A DNA stretch of 37,478 bases from Candidatus Kaiserbacteria bacterium (GTDB lineage Bacteria; Patescibacteriota; Minisyncoccia; Phycocordibacterales; UBA2100): contig JALWTP010000040.1 in assembly GCA_027082835.1 (NCBI GenBank), positions 1 to 37,478 of the forward strand, given 5' to 3'. Under the pieces are notes generated by a model. It was not told the origin of the DNA, did not search any database, and saw only the letters and a list, made by a program, of their open reading frames with translations. The stretch's first letter is position 1. Each line of letters opens with the position of its first letter. Below, in pieces: positions 2,907-33,100 of this stretch. A program made the position numbers and the translations under genes.

Positions 2907-3329
2907 ATGGCAAAAAAAGTAGAGAGACAATTAAAGCTTCAAGTTCCCGCGGGAAAGGCAACACCGGCACCGCCACTTGGTCCGGCGCTTGGACAGGCTG
3001 GTATAAACATCGGAGAATTCGTTAACCAATTTAACGACCGTACTCGCGAGATGATGGGAGACATCATCCCCGTTGTTATCAGTGTATACGACGACCGGAG
3101 CTTTGACTTTGTATTAAAGACACCTCCAGCATCAAGCTTACTGCTTAAAGCAATTGGAGCAAAAAGCGGATCAGGAAAAAATGTTACCAAAAAAGTAGGA
3201 AAGGTAACCCAAAAACAATTGGAAGACATCGCAACACAAAAAATGGAAGATCTCAGTGCAAACGATGTAAAAGCAGGAGCAAAAATAATCGCAGGAACTG
3301 CTCGCTCAATGGGAATTGAGGTTGAGTAA
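2907..3329 (+). CDS. rplK: 50S ribosomal protein L11
   Basis: [34 protein letters not shown] is the canonical L11 N-terminal signature. Confidence 0.95.
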
Positions 3330-3348
3330 TTGAAACTACTACACTAAA

Positions 3349-3394
3349 ATAGTCAAACAAAAATGCCTCAAAAGAGGCATTTTTGTTTGACTAT
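3349..3394 (+). terminator. strong hairpin terminator after rplK
   Basis: 21-bp perfect stem ATAGTCAAACAAAAATGCCTC / GAGGCATTTTTGTTTGACTAT with an AAAA loop. The T run lies within and after the 3' arm. Confidence 0.7.
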
Positions 3395-3444
3395 TTGTAT
3401 AAGAGTATGGTTTAATCGTGGCCGGACAAACAAAGGAGGACTAC

Positions 3445-3963
3445 ATGAACATTCTTACAACGCTGTATTCGCCACTTCCCATTGACATCAATAAATCAGT
3501 TGGGTATGCGTATCTTCTGATGGATATGGTGGTGAATCACATTGCTTCCTCTTATGGGACAAACAAAACAGGTGGATACCAATATATTCAAGGACGAGAC
3601 GGATCTTGTTTACTGTTGCGAAAAGTGGGGTATATACCCACTGAGGCAGATGAGAAGAAATATAAGGGCTTTGCGCTTGAAAAAGGGCAAAGGCTTCGTT
3701 CTCATCCGGAACACACTCTGAGCTTTCAACCCATGGATGTGGCACAAAAGAAATACCAAGGTGCGGTGCGGATGGAAAACGGATGGATCCATTCATTTTC
3801 CGGATTCTCTCCAAATAACGACGAGGCAATCGCAATGGCGGTCGGTGTCCGTATGGGGTGGTCTTCTTTGGAGTATGCCTGCAAAGTGATGCACATATCT
3901 CAAAACGAAAAAAGCTTTTGGAAAATGCACAAACTGTCTAAGTTAGTAACCCAAGATAAGTGA
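3445..3963 (+). CDS. hypothetical protein (172 aa), no family recognised
   Basis: AAGGAGG (3433-3439) lies 5 nt before the ATG at 3445. The track ORF begins at an upstream GTG at 3418. It occupies the position where rplA is normally found. Confidence 0.6.
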   Translation: MNILTTLYSPLPIDINKSVGYAYLLMDMVVNHIASSYGTNKTGGYQYIQGRDGSCLLLRKVGYIPTEADEKKYKGFALEKGQRLRSHPEHTLSFQPMDVAQKKYQGAVRMENGWIHSFSGFSPNNDEAIAMAVGVRMGWSSLEYACKVMHISQNEKSFWKMHKLSKLVTQDK

Positions 3964-4017: not shown

Positions 4018-5364
4018 TTATTTGAGCACAATGTCGTGTTCACCACGCCTTGTATCAAACCGATCAGGTTCGTCGTCAAGGTGAAGAACCAATCCTGCCG
4101 CCTCAAACTTCGTTTGAAGTGCACCGGCAATTTGAATAGCACGCTCGCGCAGTGTCGGATGGACAAAGCGTGTTGCACGCAATTCTGCCAAATACACAAG
4201 CGCCGGCAGTGTTCCCGTCACGCGATTACTCGTGAGATACCCCATCGCAATGTAGTATTGCGCTATTTCCACACTTGCGTTCAATTCAGCAATAGCGTCT
4301 TCTTGCACTGCGACAAGTGACCTTACTTCTTTACGCACATCCTCGGGGAGCTCATTGAGATACCAAGGATGGAAACCGAACTTGGTTGTGAGAAGTGGCA
4401 TCCGTTGAGTAACAGCGCGATGTCGCTGAATATCACGGAACGAGCCGAAGTCCAACAAGAATTCAAACTGTGCCATACCGGCTTCAGCAAGCCATTTGGG
4501 CAGCTCAGTTTTTGCAGGACGCCGTTTCAAGAGAGAATATAGCAGCTCTGAGACATCTATATCACAACGCATCATCGCAAACTCTGGCGCATACTCATTG
4601 TGATAATAGTACTCATCCATAGCAAAAGAGGAGTAGTCCTCGGTTGCTTCATATCGTTTGTGGTCAAACGAATTTGGGTGAGCCTGCTTAAGTGCCTCTT
4701 CTATTGCGTGTGCTACACGACGCACCTCCAAAAGAGGGTGGTGGTGCAGTGTTTGCAACTTATCCGCAGCTTGGCGCAGGTTCGTATGCCATGCGAGGTT
4801 CGTTGTGGCACCTGCCGGCAAGAATCCACGAAGGATATCAAACGCTCGTGCGTTGATTGCCTTCTCGTAGATCGCCTCTTCTTCACCATCTTGACGAGGA
4901 AAGCGTTTTTTGAGCGCTTTGCGTACTTTTGGCATAGAAGTGCTATAAAAAGTACGCCACCGTTCGAGGATTTCGTCCCCCAAGTCTTTTTCAGTAGGGT
5001 TCTTGAACGGCAAATGCTCAAAATCCACATAGCGTGTGGACGACTCCTGTCCCGAGTACAGCGGCCAATCTTGAATTGCCTTTGCCACCAACATAGACAC
5101 GCCTTCAACGAAAATAGTGGTAGTACCACAGTCTCCGATTGATTTGTGTCCATAGCCAACATAGAAGTTTTTCATAAAGTTTTCAGCGCCGCGTTTTTCA
5201 AGCACTTTCAAATGACCCTCAAGGCCTTTCGTGGATCGGGAATGCAGTGCTTGGAGCATTGCTTCTGCTTCGGGGTTGATGATAGCACCGGTGTTGAGCA
5301 CGATGATATGCCCGCCACCTTGAATGTCCACTTTTGTGTGATTCAGATTTTTCAGGGTTTTCAT
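4018..5364 (-). CDS. thyX: long (448 aa) two-domain ThyX-like FAD-dependent thymidylate synthase
   Basis: The N-half has GHKSIGDCG...EGVSMLVAKAIQDWPLYSGQESSTRY, which matches the S-x-QES-x-RY part of the ThyX motif. The C-half has FRDIQRHRAVTQRMP, which matches the RHR part. The gene is divergent from dcd-tmk. Confidence 0.6.
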   Translation of the reverse strand: MKTLKNLNHTKVDIQGGGHIIVLNTGAIINPEAEAMLQALHSRSTKGLEGHLKVLEKRGAENFMKNFYVGYGHKSIGDCGTTTIFVEGVSMLVAKAIQDWPLYSGQESSTRYVDFEHLPFKNPTEKDLGDEILERWRTFYSTSMPKVRKALKKRFPRQDGEEEAIYEKAINARAFDILRGFLPAGATTNLAWHTNLRQAADKLQTLHHHPLLEVRRVAHAIEEALKQAHPNSFDHKRYEATEDYSSFAMDEYYYHNEYAPEFAMMRCDIDVSELLYSLLKRRPAKTELPKWLAEAGMAQFEFLLDFGSFRDIQRHRAVTQRMPLLTTKFGFHPWYLNELPEDVRKEVRSLVAVQEDAIAELNASVEIAQYYIAMGYLTSNRVTGTLPALVYLAELRATRFVHPTLRERAIQIAGALQTKFEAAGLVLHLDDEPDRFDTRRGEHDIVLK

Positions 5365-16914: not shown

Positions 16915-17955
16915 ATGAAGGAAACAAGCATTACAATCACAACAGGAACAATTATACGAGTAATTGTACTACTCGCTTCGGCGGCGCTGCTTTGGTATTT
17001 GCGTGATCTTGTACTTATAGTTCTCACCTCTATTGTTATTGCTTCATCTATTGAGCCGGCTGCGAGGGTGCTGAGAAAACATAGAGTACCACGCGTGTTG
17101 GCGGTTCTTGCAGTGTATCTTAGTTTTTTTGCAACATTTTTTGCTGTTATATTCTTCCTTTTGCCACCAGTTCTTAATGAAACATCATCATTAATAAACA
17201 CAGTTCCTATGTATATTGATACTATACATACTCCTGCAGGAAATATAGACCAAAATACACTCAATCATACAAAGACATTACTGAGTGACTTTTCGCTAAA
17301 GGACACCACTAACGATATCGCCAATTTTATGAAAGGTCTTTCAGGAAACTTTTTAATGGCGATAAGTGTTATATTTGGTGGTGCATTTAGTTTGATTTTA
17401 ATTGTTGTATTTTCATTTTATTTTGCTATAAACGAAAAGGGTATTGAAGAGTTTTTGCGTGTGGTAACACCACTGCAATACGAAAATTATGTTCTTGATC
17501 TCTGGCGTCGCACAAAAGTAAAAATAGGATTATGGATGCAGGGGCAGTTTCTACTCGCCATTCTCATAGGGGTTTTGACCTATCTTGGTCTTGCAATACT
17601 TGGTATACAGTATGCATTGGTGCTTGCGGTTATAGCAGCAACAATGGAGCTTATACCGGTCTTCGGTCCTATTTTGGCATCTATTCCCGCAATAGCATTG
17701 GCATTTACCGGAGGTGGAATAACTATGGCGCTCATTGTAGCTGCGTTTTATATAATCATCCAACAATTTGAAAATCACCTCATCTATCCGCTTGTGGTGA
17801 CTAAAGTGGTCGGTGTTCCTCCTATTTTGGTTATTATTGCATTGTTGATTGGAGCAAAGGTTGCAGGAATATTGGGTATATTACTTTCTGTTCCTCTTGC
17901 AGCTGCCGCACAAGAGCTGTTTAATGATGCTGAAAAGTCTCGCAAGGCACACTAA
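16915..17955 (+). CDS. AI-2E family transporter (PerM/UPF0118)
   Basis: Polytopic membrane protein with the characteristic ELIPVFGPILASIPA segment. Confidence 0.85.
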   Translation: MKETSITITTGTIIRVIVLLASAALLWYLRDLVLIVLTSIVIASSIEPAARVLRKHRVPRVLAVLAVYLSFFATFFAVIFFLLPPVLNETSSLINTVPMYIDTIHTPAGNIDQNTLNHTKTLLSDFSLKDTTNDIANFMKGLSGNFLMAISVIFGGAFSLILIVVFSFYFAINEKGIEEFLRVVTPLQYENYVLDLWRRTKVKIGLWMQGQFLLAILIGVLTYLGLAILGIQYALVLAVIAATMELIPVFGPILASIPAIALAFTGGGITMALIVAAFYIIIQQFENHLIYPLVVTKVVGVPPILVIIALLIGAKVAGILGILLSVPLAAAAQELFNDAEKSRKAH

Positions 17956-25697: not shown

Positions 25698-28133
25698 CTA
25701 CAGTCGTGTAGTTGTGTATATGTCACTGTCTTCTTCGTCCGAGTCTTCTTCATCATATTCAGCCTCTGTGCTGCTGTCTGTTGTAGTTGATTCGGAGCTT
25801 TCGTCTTCGGTTTCTGTTTCCATTTCTTCTGCTGGCTCTGTATCAGTTGAGACAAGAGAAGGGGAATCATCATCATATTCTTCTTGTTGTTCGTCAGTCT
25901 GCACAGCATCGGCAATAACTTCTCGCGGTTTTGATCCTTCTTGTGGTCCTACGATGCCGTTTTCTTCCAACATATCCATTAAGCGAGCAGCACGAGCATA
26001 TCCTATGCGCAACTTGCGTTGCAAGAATGAAGTAGAACCTTTCCCGGCTTCTATAATGATATTTTTGGCTTCGTCATACAGAGCGTCTTCCTCGTCGGTT
26101 TCAATACTGCCCGAGCCACCGACAGTTGCAGAGAATATACTGCTATCGTGCCCCACTTCGGTGAGATCTATTTCATCAGGGAGTTCATCACTATATGAAT
26201 CAGCAAGATATTTCACTGTTGCTTTCACTTCGTCTTCCGTTACAAACGGAGCTTGTATACGACGAGGCTTACTCATCTCGCCCGACAAAAAGAGCATATC
26301 ACCCGCGCCGAGTAGTTTTTCAGCACCTCCCATATCTAAAATGGTCCGCGAGTCAATCTGAGACGATACTTGAAGTGCAAGTCGTGAAGGTATGTTGGCC
26401 TTAATGAGTCCGGTAATAACCTGTACACTCGGCCTTTGTGTAGAGAGTATAAGGTGAATACCAACGGCACGGCTCATCTGTGCAAGGCGTACAATTGCCG
26501 ACTCCAGCTCGCGTGGGTATGCCTGCATCAAGTCGGAAAGCTCGTCTATAACCGTTACGATATATGGCATTGGCTCAGGAGCGTCTTCTGCACCCTTTGC
26601 CGGCTCATATATATTCGCATGATACGATGCAATGTCGCGCACTTTCTCGGCTTCCAGTATGTCGTAGCGTCTATCCATCTCCTTTGCGAGCCATTTAAGC
26701 GCAAGGATGGCTTTCTTTGGGTCGGTAATAACAGGTGTAAGCAAGTGAGGTATGGAATTATAGAGTGTGAGCTCCACGCGTTTAGGATCAACCATAACAA
26801 AACGCAAATCTTGTGGGCCCTTTCGGTAGAGTAGACTCATTATAAGGTCGTGTACGGTAACCGATTTACCTGCACCGGTCGCACCGGCGATAAGCAGGTG
26901 TGGCATCTTGGCGATGTTCGCATAGTGAGGTTTTCCGGTGATGTCTCTACCGAGGGTAATCAAAAGTGGCTTGTCAGACTTCTGAAACTCTTTTTCAGAC
27001 ATAAGTGTAGCGAGTCCGAGAGTTGACTTGGTGGTGTTTGGCACCTCAATACCTACCAATGCTTTTCCGGGGATAGGGGCTTCTATTCGTATAGGGCTAG
27101 CAGCGAGTGCGAGTTCCAAGTTGCTTTGCAGACTGAGTATTTTAGCAAGACGTACTCCTTCTGCCGGCTTCATTGCGTATCTGGTCACAGTCGGTCCGAT
27201 AGATACTTCATCCATCACGACCGATATACCAAAGTTGTTCAGAGTTCTTTTTATGGTGTTTGCACTTGCTTTCACATCGCCCACAGCAGGACGCCCTTTA
27301 TCTTTTTTAAGGATTGAAAGTGGCGGAGGAGTATATTCACCACTTTTGCCTGATGAGAAATTAAATATAGATGGTTCTGCATCTGCTTTGCCTGCGCCAA
27401 AGTTAAAGATACCCGCCGACTTTTCTTTTGCATCTGTATCAGAGGCATCTTCCTCATTTTCATTTTGTTGTTCGCTGAGCTGTTCGTGTTCTTTGGTATG
27501 CTCGTCTATGGTGGCTTGCTCTTCTTCTTCAAGTACATTTTCTTCCTCCTTTTCCTTTTTAAATATGAGTGCCATAGCCGAGGCGAATATCTTTTGCAAG
27601 TGAGTATCAAATGCAATCAAAAGGGTAACGATGATGAGTCCACATAAAACCAAAATAGTTGCAGTAGTATCCACCGCATAGATAAGGGGAGCAGATACCA
27701 ACTCACCTGCAAGCCCTCCATTTCCCGTGGAGACAGTTTCTATCAAGCCAAGACCACTGAGAAAGAATATAACAGTGCTTGCAATCTTAAAGGTGCTTAC
27801 ATCTTTTTTGTTTAGCTCACTGAAAAAGACAACAGCAAGTAATACAAACGAAATAGGTACGAGTGTATACCCCACACCAAAAAGAGCACCGAGCCATATA
27901 TAGAGTGTCGTGCCGAGCTTGCCCGCCATATTAAACTCAGCAAGCAAAAAGAATACGGCAAGTAGTATGAAGAGTATCGCCCATACACTTCGCATTGTGT
28001 CGGGTGCTACCGGTGCGTGACGGAGATGCACTTCTTTTTCTTGTACTTGTGGTTTTTTTCGAGGTCTTCCCGGGCCTCGTTTTGTTTTTTTGTTTGCACT
28101 CTTTTTTTCAGATTTAGACGATCGGGCCACCAT
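25698..28133 (-). CDS. ftsK: DNA translocase FtsK/SpoIIIE with acidic C-terminal tail
   Basis: It has a basic N-terminus, four to five TM helices, the Walker A motif LIAGATGAGKSV, and a gamma-domain winged helix (LQRKLRIGYARAARLMDMLEENGIVGP). Confidence 0.95.
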   Translation of the reverse strand: MVARSSKSEKKSANKKTKRGPGRPRKKPQVQEKEVHLRHAPVAPDTMRSVWAILFILLAVFFLLAEFNMAGKLGTTLYIWLGALFGVGYTLVPISFVLLAVVFFSELNKKDVSTFKIASTVIFFLSGLGLIETVSTGNGGLAGELVSAPLIYAVDTTATILVLCGLIIVTLLIAFDTHLQKIFASAMALIFKKEKEEENVLEEEEQATIDEHTKEHEQLSEQQNENEEDASDTDAKEKSAGIFNFGAGKADAEPSIFNFSSGKSGEYTPPPLSILKKDKGRPAVGDVKASANTIKRTLNNFGISVVMDEVSIGPTVTRYAMKPAEGVRLAKILSLQSNLELALAASPIRIEAPIPGKALVGIEVPNTTKSTLGLATLMSEKEFQKSDKPLLITLGRDITGKPHYANIAKMPHLLIAGATGAGKSVTVHDLIMSLLYRKGPQDLRFVMVDPKRVELTLYNSIPHLLTPVITDPKKAILALKWLAKEMDRRYDILEAEKVRDIASYHANIYEPAKGAEDAPEPMPYIVTVIDELSDLMQAYPRELESAIVRLAQMSRAVGIHLILSTQRPSVQVITGLIKANIPSRLALQVSSQIDSRTILDMGGAEKLLGAGDMLFLSGEMSKPRRIQAPFVTEDEVKATVKYLADSYSDELPDEIDLTEVGHDSSIFSATVGGSGSIETDEEDALYDEAKNIIIEAGKGSTSFLQRKLRIGYARAARLMDMLEENGIVGPQEGSKPREVIADAVQTDEQQEEYDDDSPSLVSTDTEPAEEMETETEDESSESTTTDSSTEAEYDEEDSDEEDSDIYTTTRL

Positions 28134-28289
28134 GATTTTAATTTACATTTATAACTAAGAATACATACCATAATACCATATTACAGACATCAATATGAGC
28201 ACTCGGTATGCAGGTACAAAGTATAAAAGCGACACACCACTACGATACTTTGTACAAACTGCAACTACTGTGTCGCAATTAAAACTCTA

Positions 28290-28317
28290 TTGACCATAAA
28301 GGACATACACTTATAAT
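28290..28317 (+). promoter_or_regulatory. near-consensus sigma70 promoter of the wHTH gene
   Basis: TTGACC (28290-28295), 16-nt spacer, TATAAT (28312-28317). The spacer is filled by an ATAAAGGACAT box. Confidence 0.55.
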
Positions 28318-28464
28318 GGACATATTCATAAAAGACATAAAGGACACGATAAAGGACATTGTATAAAGGACAAATCTAATGGACATACAATGCATAAATG
28401 TCCTTTATATAAAGGACACGAGTATGGCAAAAGAACTATATAACAAGCGTTCTATAAAGGACAT
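28296..28464 (+). repeat. cluster of ten ATAAAGGACAy boxes (nine direct, one inverted)
   Basis: By hand count, direct copies start at 28296, 28313, 28328, 28337, 28349, 28363, 28376, 28409 and 28454, and an inverted copy at 28398. The perfect 20-nt palindrome TGTCCTTTATATAAAGGACA spans 28399-28418. Confidence 0.85.
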
Positions 28465-29254
28465 AACAAAGATGCTTAATAAAAGCACGACAGCATTCAT
28501 TAATCCGTTTGGTGAAAATACAGTAGGAGCTGTTTTGTATGCTCGAGCAGAGCGACTTGCCACCGCGACCTATTTGGTGACCAATGCGATACCGTACAAA
28601 GAAGAAATACGAAATACCATTCGCAGACAAGCGCGTCACCTTATCGCACTTGTTTTAGAGTTGCGATCAGGTGTGCATACTGTCGGCACACAATCGGTTA
28701 CCGATCTTGTTGTATGTGTGAAGCATTGTGTATCACTTATAGATTTGCTTTATGTTTCCGGACTTATTTCAGAAATGAACGCAGAAGTGCTCAAAGGAGC
28801 ATATACCGACTTTGGTATGTACATACAAAATGCAATGATCGACAATCGCGCGGATGCAGTTGCGATTGCACAGGACTTTTTTGCACAAGTTCCGGAACAG
28901 CAAATAGAAAAAGATGCTTCTCAAGGACATAAAGGACAAAGTAAAAAAAGTATAAAGGACATAAAGGACACGATAAAGGACACGGAAAGTATAAAGGACA
29001 TAAAGGACACGCAACAAAAAAACAGCGTTAGAAAACAACCACTTAATGAGCGTAAGCGATTGGCGCACCGTAGAATGCAGGTAATAGATGTTATTACTCA
29101 AAAGGGAAGAGCAAGTAGTAAAGAGATTCAAATTGCGCTACCGAACTTAAGTGCAAAGATGATTTCTCGCGAATTGCACTCGCTTGTAGAAGATGGAGTT
29201 ATTGAGCGTGAAGGAGAGAAAAGATGGGCTGTATACTCGCTATCTCTCGCCTAA
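28424..29254 (+). CDS. winged-helix (DeoR-like HTH) DNA-binding protein with helical N-domain and IKD-repeat linker
   Basis: The C-terminus RMQVIDVITQKGRASSKEIQIALPNLSAKMISRELHSLVEDGVIEREG looks like a wHTH. The ATG at 28424 is preferred over 28379, which lies within the box array. AAAGGA sits 7 nt upstream. Confidence 0.65.
   Translation: MAKELYNKRSIKDITKMLNKSTTAFINPFGENTVGAVLYARAERLATATYLVTNAIPYKEEIRNTIRRQARHLIALVLELRSGVHTVGTQSVTDLVVCVKHCVSLIDLLYVSGLISEMNAEVLKGAYTDFGMYIQNAMIDNRADAVAIAQDFFAQVPEQQIEKDASQGHKGQSKKSIKDIKDTIKDTESIKDIKDTQQKNSVRKQPLNERKRLAHRRMQVIDVITQKGRASSKEIQIALPNLSAKMISRELHSLVEDGVIEREGEKRWAVYSLSLA
28920..29010 (+). repeat. seven further ATAAAGGACAy boxes inside the wHTH coding sequence
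   Basis: Copies start at 28920 (degenerate), 28929, 28952, 28961, 28973, 28991 and 29000. They are translated as KGQSKKSIKDIKDTIKDTESIKDIKDT. Confidence 0.85.
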
Positions 29255-29952
29255 TCATAAAAAATAGCAATGATAGTTGAAAAATGGCTTTGTGAAGTCA
29301 TTTTTCTGTAACTTTACTCATTTTTATCTCTTTATTATGTAATTTGGGCTATTTTTATTTTAACACTTTTTGGATCTTGCGTCATATAACAACACACAAT
29401 TAATAGGTATGAAAACCGTTGACTTTATACAATAAACCAGTATCCTTATAGCACCACTAAAGCCAAGAATACTTGCCGTTTATAACGGTCGCTTTAGTGT
29501 ACGCGATATGCACATATCGCTGTTTGATAAAATAAGGAAAGTATTCGCTATCCACATTACCCACTTGGGTTTATTGCTCACTTGGCTGAGCGATATATAA
29601 TGTGGAGGAAGCTATGTATTTTTCATAGCGATGTGTACCTTGAAAATGTTTCTCGTAAGCACGGTAAAAGGTGTATTACGAAGAGCTACATAATCACATC
29701 TTATAATTAAATGCATTTAGTTATGCATTGTTTTCCGCACGGACGCTCTGTTCAGAATATGAAAAAGTAACTCAGTATATCGGTCTTCATTATGTTAGCT
29801 ACCTCGCAATTCTATTGTGTCGAAATATATGATAGAAGCGAGATGGCAATTAAAAGCAAAGTCGCATTGCAATGAAGTCAAACAACGCCATTACAATTTA
29901 TTATTAGTAGTAATTATTGTTGTTTGCTTTTCAAGTAATGTGGCGCCTACAG

Positions 29953-29974
29953 TAAATTGTATGCATACAATTTA
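29953..29974. promoter_or_regulatory. perfect 22-nt palindrome TAAATTGTATGCATACAATTTA (candidate operator)
   Basis: Exact dyad symmetry, about 190 nt upstream of the surface-protein ATG. Confidence 0.5.
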
Positions 29975-30026
29975 TTGTGGATGAAAAAGTGTGGTGTCTA
30001 TTTGGTCGACAAATAGCGTGCCGCAG

Positions 30027-30095
30027 CTATGGACGTCTCCGGGCATCGAATGATACCTCGGGGATATTTCCCCGGGAACGCCGAGGGCCCCATAG
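30027..30095 (+). promoter_or_regulatory. GC-rich structured element in the 5' region of the surface-protein gene (class unknown)
   Basis: The closing stem is CTATGG/CCATAG. The inner hairpin is CTCGGGGA-tatt-TCCCCGGG, and mutually exclusive CTCGG/CCGAG and CCGGG pairings are possible. The GC content stands out from the AT-rich flanks. Confidence 0.35.
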
Positions 30096-30162
30096 TCAAA
30101 AAGGTCTATAAGTTTGTAGGACTTGTATTACACGACAAGTACTACATTTAATTAAATAAATT

Positions 30163-33100
30163 ATGAGTAATGTATTAACAAACAAAGTTGCCGCAGGTGC
30201 GGTTGCTGTTGCAATGATCTTCTCATTTGCATTTGCATTCGCTACACCAGCGAAAGCTGCAACAGTGGAAGAGCTTACAGCACAAATAGCTTCACTATTG
30301 GCAACAATTTCATCTCTACAAGCACAGCTTGCAGATATGAAGGGTGGTTCATCAGCAACCACAGGTGGAACATACAACTTCACCAAAAACCTTAAAGTTG
30401 GAATGAGTGATCCTGAAGTTAAAGACTTACAGAAGTTCCTTAACGCAAACGGATTTGCCGTTTCAGCTACCGGAGCAGGATCAGCTGGACACGAAACAGA
30501 ATACTTTGGTTCACGAACCAAAGCAGCTGTTATTGCATGGCAAAATGCAAACAAAGAACATGTTCTTGCACCAGTAGGACTTTCAGCAGGAACAGGATAC
30601 TGGGGATCAAGCTCACGAGCATACGCTAATTCTCTTGGAAGTAGCGATACCACAACAACTGGTACCACTACAACAACTCCAACAGGAACAGGTGTAACCG
30701 TGTCAGCTGCCGCACAACCGGCAAATGGTCTTGCAGTTCAAGGAGCATCACGCGTTCCATTTACAAAATTCACTATAACCAACAACAGCGGATCTAATCA
30801 AACAATTAATTCTGTTACTGTTGAACGAGGTGGATTGATGGATGATTCTGTTTTCTCTGGAGTAGTTCTCCTTGACGAGGACGGTACCCAACTTGGAAAT
30901 GCTCAAACACTTAATTCAGTACATCAAGCAACAATTGGTGAGGCTGTTACTATCCCTGCAGGTGCTTCACGCACATTTACTGTAGCAGGTAATATGGCTT
31001 CATCTCTTGGAGCAAAAGCTGGACAAGTGGGAACACTTTCAGTGGTAGCAGTAAACACTTCAGCAACAGTTGCAGGTTCACTTCCTATCACCGGAGCAGC
31101 ACATACAATAAACGCTACTCTTACAATTGGATCATTGACCTCAACAACCGTGTCTTCATTTGATCCAAATGGAGCGCAAACAAAAAACATCGGAGACACC
31201 GGAGTGCGATTTACCGGACTTCGCTTTACTGCAGGTTCTGCAGAGGATTTGATGTTTAACGGAATCCGATTCCGAATGAACGGATCTGCTTCAGCATCAG
31301 ACCTAGCAAACTTAATGGTAAATGTAAACGGTACCGATTATCCAGCAACTATGTCAGCTGACGGACGATATGCTACAGCTATGGTTCCCGGTGGCGTACT
31401 TGTAAAGAAAGGATACTCAATTGATGTATACATCAAGGGAGATATTGTTGGAAGCAACGCAGCTGGACGAAAAGTAGAATTTGATGTTGACAAAACATCA
31501 GATGTATACTTCACTGGCGTAACATACGGTTATGGAGTGGTGCCTTCAGCAGGTACTGGTACTGTAAGTACAGCTGCTACACATGGTACAACTATTACCA
31601 ATAGTCAACCTTGGTTCCAAGGTTCAACAATCTCAATCTCAGGAGCTTCAGTAACATCTGTTGCGAAGGCATCAGAAGTGCCAGCAGCAAATGTTGCAGT
31701 GAATATTCCTAATACAACATTAGGAGGATTTGTTCTTGATTTGAAAGGAGAACCTCTTAATGTTCAGAGCCTAAAGCTTCATGTAACATATTCGGTAAAC
31801 CGTGCTGCACAAACAGACGTATTGACTAATGTCACATTAGTTGACGAAAATGGTCAAGTGATTGCCGGACCAGCAGATGAGGTGGGAAGTTCTGTAACAG
31901 CGGGAGCAGTTACTCTTTCAAGTAGTATGACATTTCCAACAGGGCGTCATGTCTACACAGTAAAGGGTACAATTGACCCTCAAATTGCTTCTGGAACAAT
32001 TACTATTAGTACAGCACCAAATGTTGACTGGACTAATGTAACCGGGCAAACAACAGGTAATACTATTACCTTGACCACTGGATCATTTAATATGAATCCA
32101 ATGACAATCAAGGCTGCTTCACTTGCAGAAACAGTTGCTGCAACTCCGGTTGCACAACATATTGTTGCCGGAGCAAATGATGTTGTTCTCGCAACATTGC
32201 GATTTGACGCATCAAATTCTGGAGAAGATATTCGCTTCTCAAATCTTCCTGTACAATTTACTGGTAATACCAATCTCTCATCATGTCGAGTAAAAGATGG
32301 TTCAACCAGTCTAACAACGGGAAGTAATGTAATTAGTAATCCTGGTTCTACAGGTACATTCGTATTTGACAATTCGCTTATCGTAAAGCGAGGCACAGTT
32401 AAATCTCTTGATATCGTATGTAACGTAGTAGGATCTGCTTCTGGTACAATCAAAGCCGGTATGGGTGCAGCTTCAGGAATAACTGCAACTGGTGTTGATT
32501 CAAACAATACTGTTACAGTAACTGGATCAGCTGCTTATGGCCAATTAATGACGGTTGGTACGGGTGCAGTAGTTGTTTCAACTGATGCAGCATCACCTTC
32601 AACAGCTCTTGTTTCTGGTGGAAGTACCGGAGTAACGCTTGGTGTGTGGAAGATGCGCGCAACTAATGAAGATGTTCGCGTTGAGAAACTTGGGCTTGCT
32701 CTTACTGGTCACACACAAGATTTGACCAATGTAACTATCTGGAATGGCAGTACACAACTTGCTGGACCAGTTGTATTTACCGGTTCAACACAGGCAGTAA
32801 CTCTTACCAACCCACTTGTATTAAGTAAAGACACTGATACTACAATCACTATCAAAGGTGATATAGCAGCTATCGGAGGTTCTAACCCGGGTACCAGTGG
32901 TTCACACTTAGCTGTAAACTGGAATAATGCTTCAGGTAACAACCAATTTACCGGAGTACAATCGGGTAATGCTATTACTCCATCTGGATCAACTTCAGTT
33001 TCAGGAGTATACGCGTACAACTCGTTCCCAACAGTTGCTAAGCTTGTTACTCCTTCAACTGTTCTTACAACAGGAACTATTGAAACTTCAAGATTTAGTA

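Follow-up and report, generated by a model that had tools for sequence, protein, structure and literature searches.

The gene of a 276-aa winged helix-turn-helix (wHTH) protein from Candidatus Kaiserbacteria carries two arrays of the same short DNA box. One array covers its promoter and 5' end, and the other lies inside its own coding sequence (CDS), where the boxes are read in two frames and encode part of a disordered linker. The gene is located in the stretch of 37,478 nt analysed here (contig JALWTP010000040.1), which is called the window in the following. From the comparison with homologous loci, we consider it probable that the gene is under negative autoregulation and that the encoded protein binds the promoter array and the intragenic array multivalently. 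The intragenic cluster was overlooked in the initial annotation, which had been made from the sequence letters alone, and it is the most unusual part of the locus.

In the 37.5-kb window there are 11 exact copies of the 11-mer ATAAAGGACAY, all confined to 715 bp, against an expectation of 0.02 copies from dinucleotide-preserving shuffles. The 9-mer TAAAGGACA was found 14 times (0.37 expected), with 13 copies located within 28297-29009. In total, 17 boxes form two clusters, one at the promoter and the 5' end of the gene and one about 500-590 nt into the CDS. The ten boxes which the initial annotation had placed in the first cluster, including an inverted copy at 28398, were all found again, and the spacings given there are correct. 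The start-to-start distances are 17, 15, 9, 12, 14, 13, 22, 11 and 45 nt. The promoter TTGACC-16-TATAAT (11/12 match), with box 1 filling its spacer and box 2 overlapping the -10 hexamer, was likewise confirmed, as was the perfect palindrome of 20 nt in front of the start codon. The right arm of this palindrome provides an AAGGA Shine-Dalgarno (SD) motif 7 nt from the ATG at 28424, the sole AAGGA at SD distance. In contrast, the statement that the only other near-copy in the window lies at 17296 was wrong, since seven more copies are present in the same CDS.

For comparison, the window and 25 further homologous loci from Patescibacteria were used, with proteins of 23-50% identity. Six of these are orthologous loci from species-representative genomes (L001-L006; 35-46% protein identity), and their promoters were aligned at the DNA level with that of the window, giving seven promoters. 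The features of the locus are as follows:

28290-28295, plus strand: -35 hexamer TTGACC of the gene's own promoter; TTGAC is invariant in the seven promoters
28296-28306, plus strand: box 1, exact, fills the -35/-10 spacer; its GGACA core is invariant in the seven promoters
28312-28317, plus strand: -10 hexamer TATAAT, directly followed by GGACA
28313-28323, plus strand: box 2 (ATAATGGACAT), 1 mismatch, overlaps the -10 hexamer and the predicted transcription start
28328 (start), plus strand: box 3 (ATAAAAGACAT), 1 mismatch, in a stretch found only in the window and absent from the orthologues
28337 (start), plus strand: box 4, exact, shares 2 nt with box 3 (boxes 3 and 4 together 28328-28347) and lies mostly in the window-only stretch
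28349-28359, plus strand: box 5, exact, in the 5' untranslated region (UTR); position conserved among the orthologues
28363-28373, plus strand: box 6 (ATAAAGGACAA), 1 mismatch, in the 5' UTR; position conserved among the orthologues
28376-28386, plus strand: box 7 (CTAATGGACAT), 2 mismatches, inside a lineage-specific insertion
28398-28408, minus strand: box 8, inverted, left arm of the palindrome
28399-28418, no strand: perfect 20-nt palindrome TGTCCTTTATATAAAGGACA, formed by boxes 8 and 9, ends 5 nt before the ATG at 28424
28409-28419, plus strand: box 9, direct, exact, right arm of the palindrome
28424-29254, plus strand: gene of the 276-aa protein with N-terminal four-helix bundle, linker and C-terminal winged helix
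28454-28464, plus strand: box 10, exact, at codons 11-14 (S-IKDI); in four orthologues, codons 3-5 hold an additional box
28920-29010, plus strand: intragenic cluster of seven boxes, encodes linker residues ~166-196 with the peptide SQGHKGQ...SIKDIKDTIKDTESIKDIKDT

An alternative in-frame ATG is located at 28379 within box 7. It would lead to a 291-aa product and has its own AAGGA 8 nt upstream. As this ATG is missing in the orthologues L001-L006, 28424 is the conserved start. Several distant homologues are annotated with a start at an ATGGACA box.

The intragenic boxes start at 28920 (2 mismatches), 28929 (1 mismatch), 28952, 28961, 28973, 28991 and 29000. The first two are read as QGH/KGQ and the other five as IKD[IT]. 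All of them lie entirely inside the linker, which is disordered in the AlphaFold2 model (predicted local distance difference test, pLDDT, <50) and would be, according to this model, a place where the protein can tolerate boxes. Family genes have 3-8 intragenic boxes each. In 18 non-redundant family genes, AAGGACA occurs 69 times in the sense strand of the CDS. In 49 cases it is read as xKD (AAG-GAC), in 19 cases it is shifted by one base and read as KG[HQ], and only one copy uses the third frame, which a full box would close by TAA. One DNA word is thus read in two frames, so that the linker peptides [ILV]KD[IT] and KG[HQ] both derive from the box. Among 186 family representatives, no linker tripeptides are more common than IKD and KG[HQ], and 152 of these proteins have at least one of them.

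The codon usage was compared between the family genes and their neighbours in 22 family loci. KD is coded by AAG-GAC in 72 of 115 cases (63%) in the family genes and in 26 of 232 cases (11%) in the flanking genes (Fisher test, 7e-23). For the linker alone the count is 32 of 45, and KG[HQ] is coded by AAAGGACA in 28 of 28 cases. The other genes of the window use AAG for 28% of Lys, GAC for 40% of Asp and ATA for 46% of Ile, and the three IKD tripeptides which they contain are all written with other codons. Both frames preserve the T that stands four bases in front of GGACA, as an NTA codon in 35 of the 49 frame-0 boxes and as an NNT codon in 18 of the 19 frame-1 boxes. Because NTA encodes Ile, Leu or Val, the position in front of KD alternates between these three residues. 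Outside the boxes, aligned identical residues have the same codon in just 36% of the sequence pairs, i.e. synonymous sites are saturated, and common descent therefore cannot explain the fixation of the codons. From this codon-identity test only the non-box baseline was used, since for boxes defined by their DNA the test is circular. Judging from the codons, selection acts on the DNA of the linker boxes in both reading frames, and a segment of the protein appears to owe its sequence to these presumed binding sites.

A direct repeat of 31 nt (30/31 identical) is shared by the two arrays, at 28328-28358 and 28952-28982. The copies are 624 nt apart and hence in frame. The first half of the upstream copy (~28328-28341) lies within the stretch that is absent from the six orthologues. 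This suggests a recent exchange between the promoter array and the linker array in this lineage, by gene conversion or duplication.

The core AAAGGACA is present in the same two places in all six orthologous loci. In the seven promoters, the invariant columns are TTGAC, positions 1, 2, 3, 5 and 6 of the -10 hexamer together with the next G, five GGACA cores and the ATG. One of the five cores is located in the -35/-10 spacer and the others are spread along the 5' UTR. Within the palindrome, the columns TGTCCTTTAT.T.AA.GACA are invariant. The sequence between these columns varies. Orthologues and two distant loci (L202, L204) share the combination of the -10 hexamer and GGACA ('TATAATGGACA'). 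Six loci of homologues with 25-33% identity were examined for enriched 7-mers of gene and promoter. AAGGACA holds or shares the first rank at four of them and is one of the four most frequent at the other two, and the density of a relaxed box in the gene region is ~5-25x that of the flanks. Palindromes of the TGTCCTTTATATAAAGGACA type were identified at the promoters of three homologues with 23-30% identity, which the metagenome scan had recovered independently. In L076 the palindrome lies between the -10 hexamer and the ATG, in L071 upstream of the start, and in L057 directly upstream of the -35 hexamer, i.e. outside of the transcript.

Nearly all of the 26 loci have the box at the promoter, in the linker or at both places. 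L057 has the promoter palindrome only, with no linker boxes or IKD/KGH peptides, and L007 (23% identity) shows neither an exact box core nor IKD/KGH in its linker. Across ~150 kb of flanking sequence of the homologous loci, the exact 9-mer is almost confined to the family gene, and no second box cluster was found in these flanks or in the window. A logo of 143 GGACA-anchored sites reads T(0.87) A(0.70) A(0.92) A(0.69) G G A C A. The fraction of AAAGACA variants upstream correlates with that in the CDS over 22 loci (rho 0.54, p 0.009, phylogenetically uncorrected).

The AlphaFold2 model of the encoded protein, calculated with 22 homologues, consists of a short helix (residues 11-20), four long helices (33-139, pLDDT mostly >90), a disordered linker of roughly 55 residues (~145-201, pLDDT <50 at 155-201) and a C-terminal wHTH domain (207-273) with H-E-H-H-E-E topology and pLDDT >90. 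Residues 226-267 match the Pfam family HxlR (PF01638) with E=5e-5, above its cut-off. Weak profile matches of the wHTH domain were obtained to BlaI (1p6r, E=0.0095) and to an HxlR-type structure, and the fold search against the PDB returned winged helices of the YodB, MecI and CzrA type. In the recognition helix, K245 and R249 are invariant and Q248 is nearly invariant in the family, which fits the unchanged box. For the N-terminal domain, the fold search returned the four-helix bundles Xcc0516 (2gsc), Avd (4dwl, 8ubb) and BT_0352 (2rld), with a target-normalised TM-score of 0.75-0.84, a root mean square deviation of 1.7-3.5 over 104-115 columns, ~11% identity and a Foldseek E-value of ~1e-2. 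No Pfam match was obtained for residues 1-200 even at E<=0.1, including the Avd/IVS family PF05635, and in NCBIfam every match stayed far below its cut-off, so that no curated threshold is reached besides that of the weak HxlR match.

A word-indexed search revealed 41 homologues, and an exhaustive profile search yielded 5,367 representative clusters at E<=1e-3, of which 2,289 reach E<=1e-30, counted at 50% identity. The named homologues originate from metagenome-assembled genomes of Patescibacteria, Paceibacterota, Kaiserbacteria and Giovannonibacteria and are annotated as hypothetical. With tblastn, no match was found in 72,556 plasmid records or 50,697 phage records. The family is large, unannotated and, as far as sampled, restricted to the candidate phyla radiation (CPR).

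Autorepression by the adjacent wHTH protein had already been proposed in the initial annotation. The proposal is strengthened by the same box at the same promoter positions in the orthologues and by the palindromes in distant homologues, with binding and repression remaining putative. The boxes, with the consensus T-A-A-A-G-G-A-C-A, would act as operators for the gene's own product. The C-terminal winged helix would read the GGACA core, and the N-terminal bundle probably oligomerises, at least to a dimer, because the sites include a palindrome. This palindrome over the SD motif and the start codon would be a dimer-type site. The head-to-tail boxes in the -35/-10 spacer, over the -10 hexamer and +1 and in the 5' UTR would fill cooperatively, by which the gene's own promoter would be shut off. 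The linker array would most likely serve as an auxiliary operator cluster. It could be bridged to the promoter array ~600 bp away as a repression loop or nucleoprotein complex, or it could act as a roadblock for transcription. Long-tethered DNA-binding domains might cope more easily with the irregular spacing of 9-22 nt than a rigid dimer. Avd-type bundles assemble as pentamers, which would suit the binding of an array.

Several known systems resemble single parts of this arrangement. Repressors of the BlaI/MecI and HxlR/YodB/ArsR type have a wHTH domain and a palindromic operator over their own promoter and translation start. The protein described here shares the winged-helix domain and the conserved, putative operator overlapping its own promoter and start. 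However, its wHTH domain follows C-terminally after a bundle and a long disordered linker, i.e. in reversed order, and there are ~10 promoter boxes instead of one or two dyads plus an array in the own CDS. A membership in the BlaI/MecI family was rejected, as it would be based on the local wHTH similarity to 1p6r alone, the domain order is reversed and no match to Pfam Penicillinase_R was obtained. The N-terminal domain is superposable on the four-helix bundles of Avd, Xcc0516 and BT_0352 ('23S rRNA intervening-sequence protein'), in contrast to its low sequence identity, the missing Pfam match and the lack of a reverse transcriptase or diversity-generating retroelement nearby. The four-helix bundle is a generic fold, and an assignment to the Avd/IVS family (PF05635) was not made, because the agreement is one of fold alone, with no profile match by sequence.

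Array-binding repressors are known from omega of plasmid pSM19035 (7-bp heptads), MetJ (8-bp metboxes) and PhoB/OmpR (direct repeats bound by winged helices). As in these systems, many short boxes (8-9 bp here), mostly head-to-tail and occasionally inverted, cover a promoter and are presumably occupied cooperatively. In contrast to the irregular spacing found here, the known arrays are contiguous or phased (7, 8 and 11 bp). Omega and MetJ belong to the ribbon-helix-helix proteins and differ in fold, and to our knowledge none of the three has an array within its own CDS in two frames. Intragenic binding sites are established for lacO2, galOI, purR O2 and parS in spo0J/parB, where they function in looping or nucleation. 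These sites are located in coding regions as well, for purR and parB in that of the own gene. They are single sites, though, whereas 3-8 boxes per gene occur here, family-wide and visibly shaping the linker peptide (IKD/KGH). The iteron origins of RepA, pi and TrfA share the direct and inverted repeats at the promoter of a winged-helix gene, but their defining features that were tested here are absent. Literature searches by box sequence and by topic returned primers and unrelated papers only, which, with incomplete coverage, is absence of evidence only.

Boxes were also found away from the family gene. Metagenome contigs were scanned with the degenerate palindrome TGTCCTTTATNTNAARGACA, which gave at least 120 mostly chance-like matches. 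Among the matches listed, 70 on the forward strand were scored, 41 of them with no box and 14 with one box within 200 nt, and 9 loci among the palindrome matches listed carry the family gene. The scan is unusable as an enrichment statistic, and clusters without the family gene that came from this palindrome-biased search document existence, not frequency. They are located on short fragments of 1-9 kb. In L104, eight TAAAGGACA/TGTCCTTTA boxes in both orientations lie at 2660-2960 between yraN (UPF0102) and an unannotated open reading frame (ORF). This cluster is 40 bp from an exact parS (TGTTTCACGTGAAACA) and adjoins three DnaA-like boxes (TTATCCACT/TTATCCCCA/TTATCCACA), all in one intergenic region of 340 bp (2623-2960), which is a candidate for the origin-proximal region of another CPR genome. 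Further clusters follow just past the 3' end of yraN and adjoin a tRNA (L061, L109) or lie between yraN and an unannotated ORF (L133). Boxes in both orientations around TGTGGATAA/TGTGGACAA occur in the spacer after cca (L063 ~795-866, L096 ~3040-3130, L109 ~4990-5100). In L063 and L096 this spacer separates the convergent genes cca and xth and is thus a non-promoter position. Six boxes are located inside ksgA, the gene of an rRNA adenine dimethylase, with TAAAGGACA on the coding strand (L107, 809-930). These clusters speak for further targets of the binder besides its own gene, not all of them promoters.

The 4-kb contig L126 (homologue L087) carries 12 exact 9-mer boxes at 1450-2520, many of them inside small ORFs. 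We take this unannotated contig to be phage-like, as its ORFs look terminase-like and structural by eye. The viral contig L167 has two arrays of 5 and 7 boxes at 3311-3600. CPR phages may exploit the same DNA-binding factor. In the viral contigs, the exact palindrome had no match and the protein patterns revealed no relative of the family. A triple-box pattern was found at 67 viral loci, nearly all with spacings in multiples of 3, the exceptions being L167 and L174. The loci with such spacings were read as unrelated coding repeats (AAA GGA CAA = K-G-Q), which are presumably collagen-like. The ORFs adjoining two clusters (L130, 234 aa; L104, 264 aa) were considered as hidden family members and rejected with an hhalign probability <1%.

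Several observations weigh against negative autoregulation as the whole explanation. The box spacing of 9-22 nt has no helical phase. Each step from the site to binding by the encoded protein and further to repression is one that we infer from sequence, and the oligomeric state is a guess from the match of the model to a generic four-helix bundle (E ~1e-2). The sense bias of the transcribed boxes and the hairpin that can sequester the SD motif (fold z = -4.4) leave room for a contribution at the RNA level. Clusters of the same box on other CPR contigs have no family gene nearby and partly lie outside of promoters. Whatever protein binds the boxes therefore has further targets, and in principle it might not be the product of the family gene. 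As a tentative alternative, the protein may be a CPR-wide, multivalent DNA-organising protein comparable to ParB or omega instead of a simple repressor, with the TAAAGGACA arrays as nucleation sites. Such an organiser would occupy its own gene beside ftsK/recA, the conserved non-promoter spacers cca/xth and yraN-tRNA, in one genome or more a site beside parS and DnaA boxes, and also CPR phages. The selection for arrays would then have written the IKD/KGH peptide repeats into the protein's own linker.

A different global DNA-binding protein with an unlinked gene is unlikely to be the binder of the boxes; in this case the wHTH gene would be only one of its targets, and the wHTH protein would not recognise the boxes itself. 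The clusters at UPF0102/yraN (L104, L061, L133, L109), cca/xth (L063, L096, L109), ksgA (L107) and on phage-like or viral contigs (L126/L087, L167) would fit such a factor, and no homologue of the family is encoded on these fragments. Their short length, however, makes the absence of the gene there uninformative for the genome, and the family gene is the one constant partner of the box at nearly all 26 loci, with L007 as the exception. It also encodes a DNA-binding domain with an invariant recognition helix, and autoregulation is the usual reason for such a coupling of box and gene. A device at the RNA level, in which the inverted copy pairs with the SD box or with upstream decoys and gates translation, or in which the AAGGA motifs are standby or pause sites for ribosomes or sites of an RNA-binding protein, seems quite improbable to us. 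All transcribed boxes but one are in sense orientation, AAGGA is an SD motif, and the 5' UTR folds with -20.8 kcal/mol (z = -4.4); the inverted box, which can mask the SD motif, may pair in alternative ways. The conserved core, though, is GGACA and not AGGAG, and several conserved copies read ACGGACA and do not contain the SD-like part. Moreover, the L057 palindrome and box 1, which fills the -35/-10 spacer, are conserved copies in untranscribed positions, and where the palindrome arms have changed in L002 and L003, the changes are not compensatory. The clusters without the family gene use both orientations, and no Rfam family matches.

The repeats might also be driven by the peptide, with selection on IKD[IT]/KGH in the linker, DNA identity through recent slippage or gene conversion, and the upstream copies as coding relics. 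The 31-nt repeat that joins the upstream array and the linker array in frame, the in-frame position of most upstream boxes relative to the CDS and the frequency of IKD and KG[HQ] among the linker tripeptides of the 186 representatives all point in this direction. We nevertheless judge it very improbable, since rare codons are fixed across lineages with saturated synonymous sites and the same 8-9 nt are kept in two frames which give unrelated peptides. The residue before KD varies among NTA codons only (I/L/V), as a constraint on DNA predicts, and the non-coding copies are invariant while their spacers vary. Hardly credible, finally, is an origin with iterons and an inverted repeat bound by a Rep-type initiator, the second proposal of the initial annotation, or a chromosomal origin. 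The promoter of a winged-helix gene with direct repeats and a single inverted one, the divergence of gene orientation at the locus and the L104 cluster near parS and DnaA-like boxes would be in line with it. In the fold search with the AlphaFold2 model, however, the best matches of the N-terminal domain were four-helix bundles (2gsc, 4dwl, 2rld). The protein has a single wHTH domain and neither WH1 nor a tandem of WH1 and WH2. The boxes have 9-11 nt and irregular distances, unlike iterons of 17-22 nt in phase, and they belong to a housekeeping chromosome with the same synteny in 10 homologous loci and no plasmid or phage relatives. DnaA boxes are as frequent in the window as expected (10 found, 10.6 expected), none lies in 28134-28423, and the intergenic DNA flanking the gene has just two with one mismatch each, at 29548 and 29976. 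No parS was found in the window. A short block of minus-strand genes is flanked by positive GC skew on either side, with no origin-type switch, which for a window of 37 kb is weak evidence.

The working principle, a negatively autoregulated winged-helix repressor with multiple operators, would by analogy be a known one. New are the large unannotated family, the deeply conserved 9-mer and, above all, the putative operator array in the protein's own linker in two reading frames. The CPR or Patescibacteria comprise a large share of bacterial diversity, and their gene regulation and chromosome biology are almost unexplored. For a family of ~2,300 clusters (50% identity, E<=1e-30), whose N-terminal domain is modelled in neither Pfam nor NCBIfam, TAAAGGACA is now available as a precise candidate recognition sequence, which is conserved across the family. 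The prediction is directly testable, because the protein and two DNA fragments of ~150 bp can be synthesised without culturing the organism. The linker array would be a clean natural example of regulatory DNA which constrains a protein sequence and fixes otherwise rare codons. It bears on the evolution of overlapping codes and on 'conserved' low-complexity peptides in disordered regions. If the protein acts on its own gene only, it would represent a new family of autoregulated repressors with an unusual operator layout. If it has a wider role, it would be a new chromosome-associated factor of CPR bacteria, whose gene would superimpose a code of binding sites on the genetic code in two frames.

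The window further contains nusG, rplK, thyX, dcd, tmk, argS, ileS, recO, metG, tatD, rpsF, ssb, efp, recA and ftsK, and from this gene content the locus is classified as conserved housekeeping chromosome. The divergent neighbour of the family gene is the following:

25698-28133, minus strand: ftsK, first gene of the block ftsK - Glucodextran_B-like - recA (context only)

The family gene is divergent from ftsK in 10 of 10 homologous loci with gene tables, and a protein of ~1,100 aa of the peptidoglycan (PG)-binding type is encoded next after it wherever the contig permits. In longer loci, ftsK heads a block with a small Glucodextran_B-like protein and recA, and efp is located just beyond in five of them. 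A probable extended -10 of the ftsK operon was identified at 28170-28178 on the minus strand (TGGTATTAT), and the motif ATAATACCA is found again upstream of ftsK in most homologous loci. As it is ~120 bp away from the first box, the box array does not overlap it. Between the promoters of ftsK and the wHTH gene, two interleaved inverted repeats cover 28214-28281. The first, GTACAAAGTAT/ATACTTTGTAC, is located at 28214-28224 and 28245-28255, and the second, TAAAAGCGACACA/TGTGTCGCAATTA, at 28224-28236 and 28269-28281.

Downstream of the family gene, a single DnaA-type 9-mer, [TC]TATCCACA, is present in plus orientation in 25 of the 26 loci, and in L076 it reads ATATCCACA. It lies 10-712 nt after the stop codon of the family gene and ~35-45 nt upstream of a TATAAT. 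In the window, the 9-mer CTATCCACA is located at 29548-29556, followed by TTGCTC at 29574-29579 and TATAAT at 29596-29601, and precedes a leader of ~555 nt in front of the gene of a 1138-aa PG-binding protein (30163). No Rfam match was obtained for 28100-30200 at gathering thresholds or at permissive E-values. The element may be a DnaA-controlled promoter or belong to a leader RNA outside of the Rfam families. At its 3' end (25698-25860, minus strand), ftsK encodes a long acidic tail rich in Ser, Thr, Asp and Glu after the gamma domain (...TETEDESSESTTTDSSTEAEYDEEDSDEEDSD...), which is unusual for FtsK.

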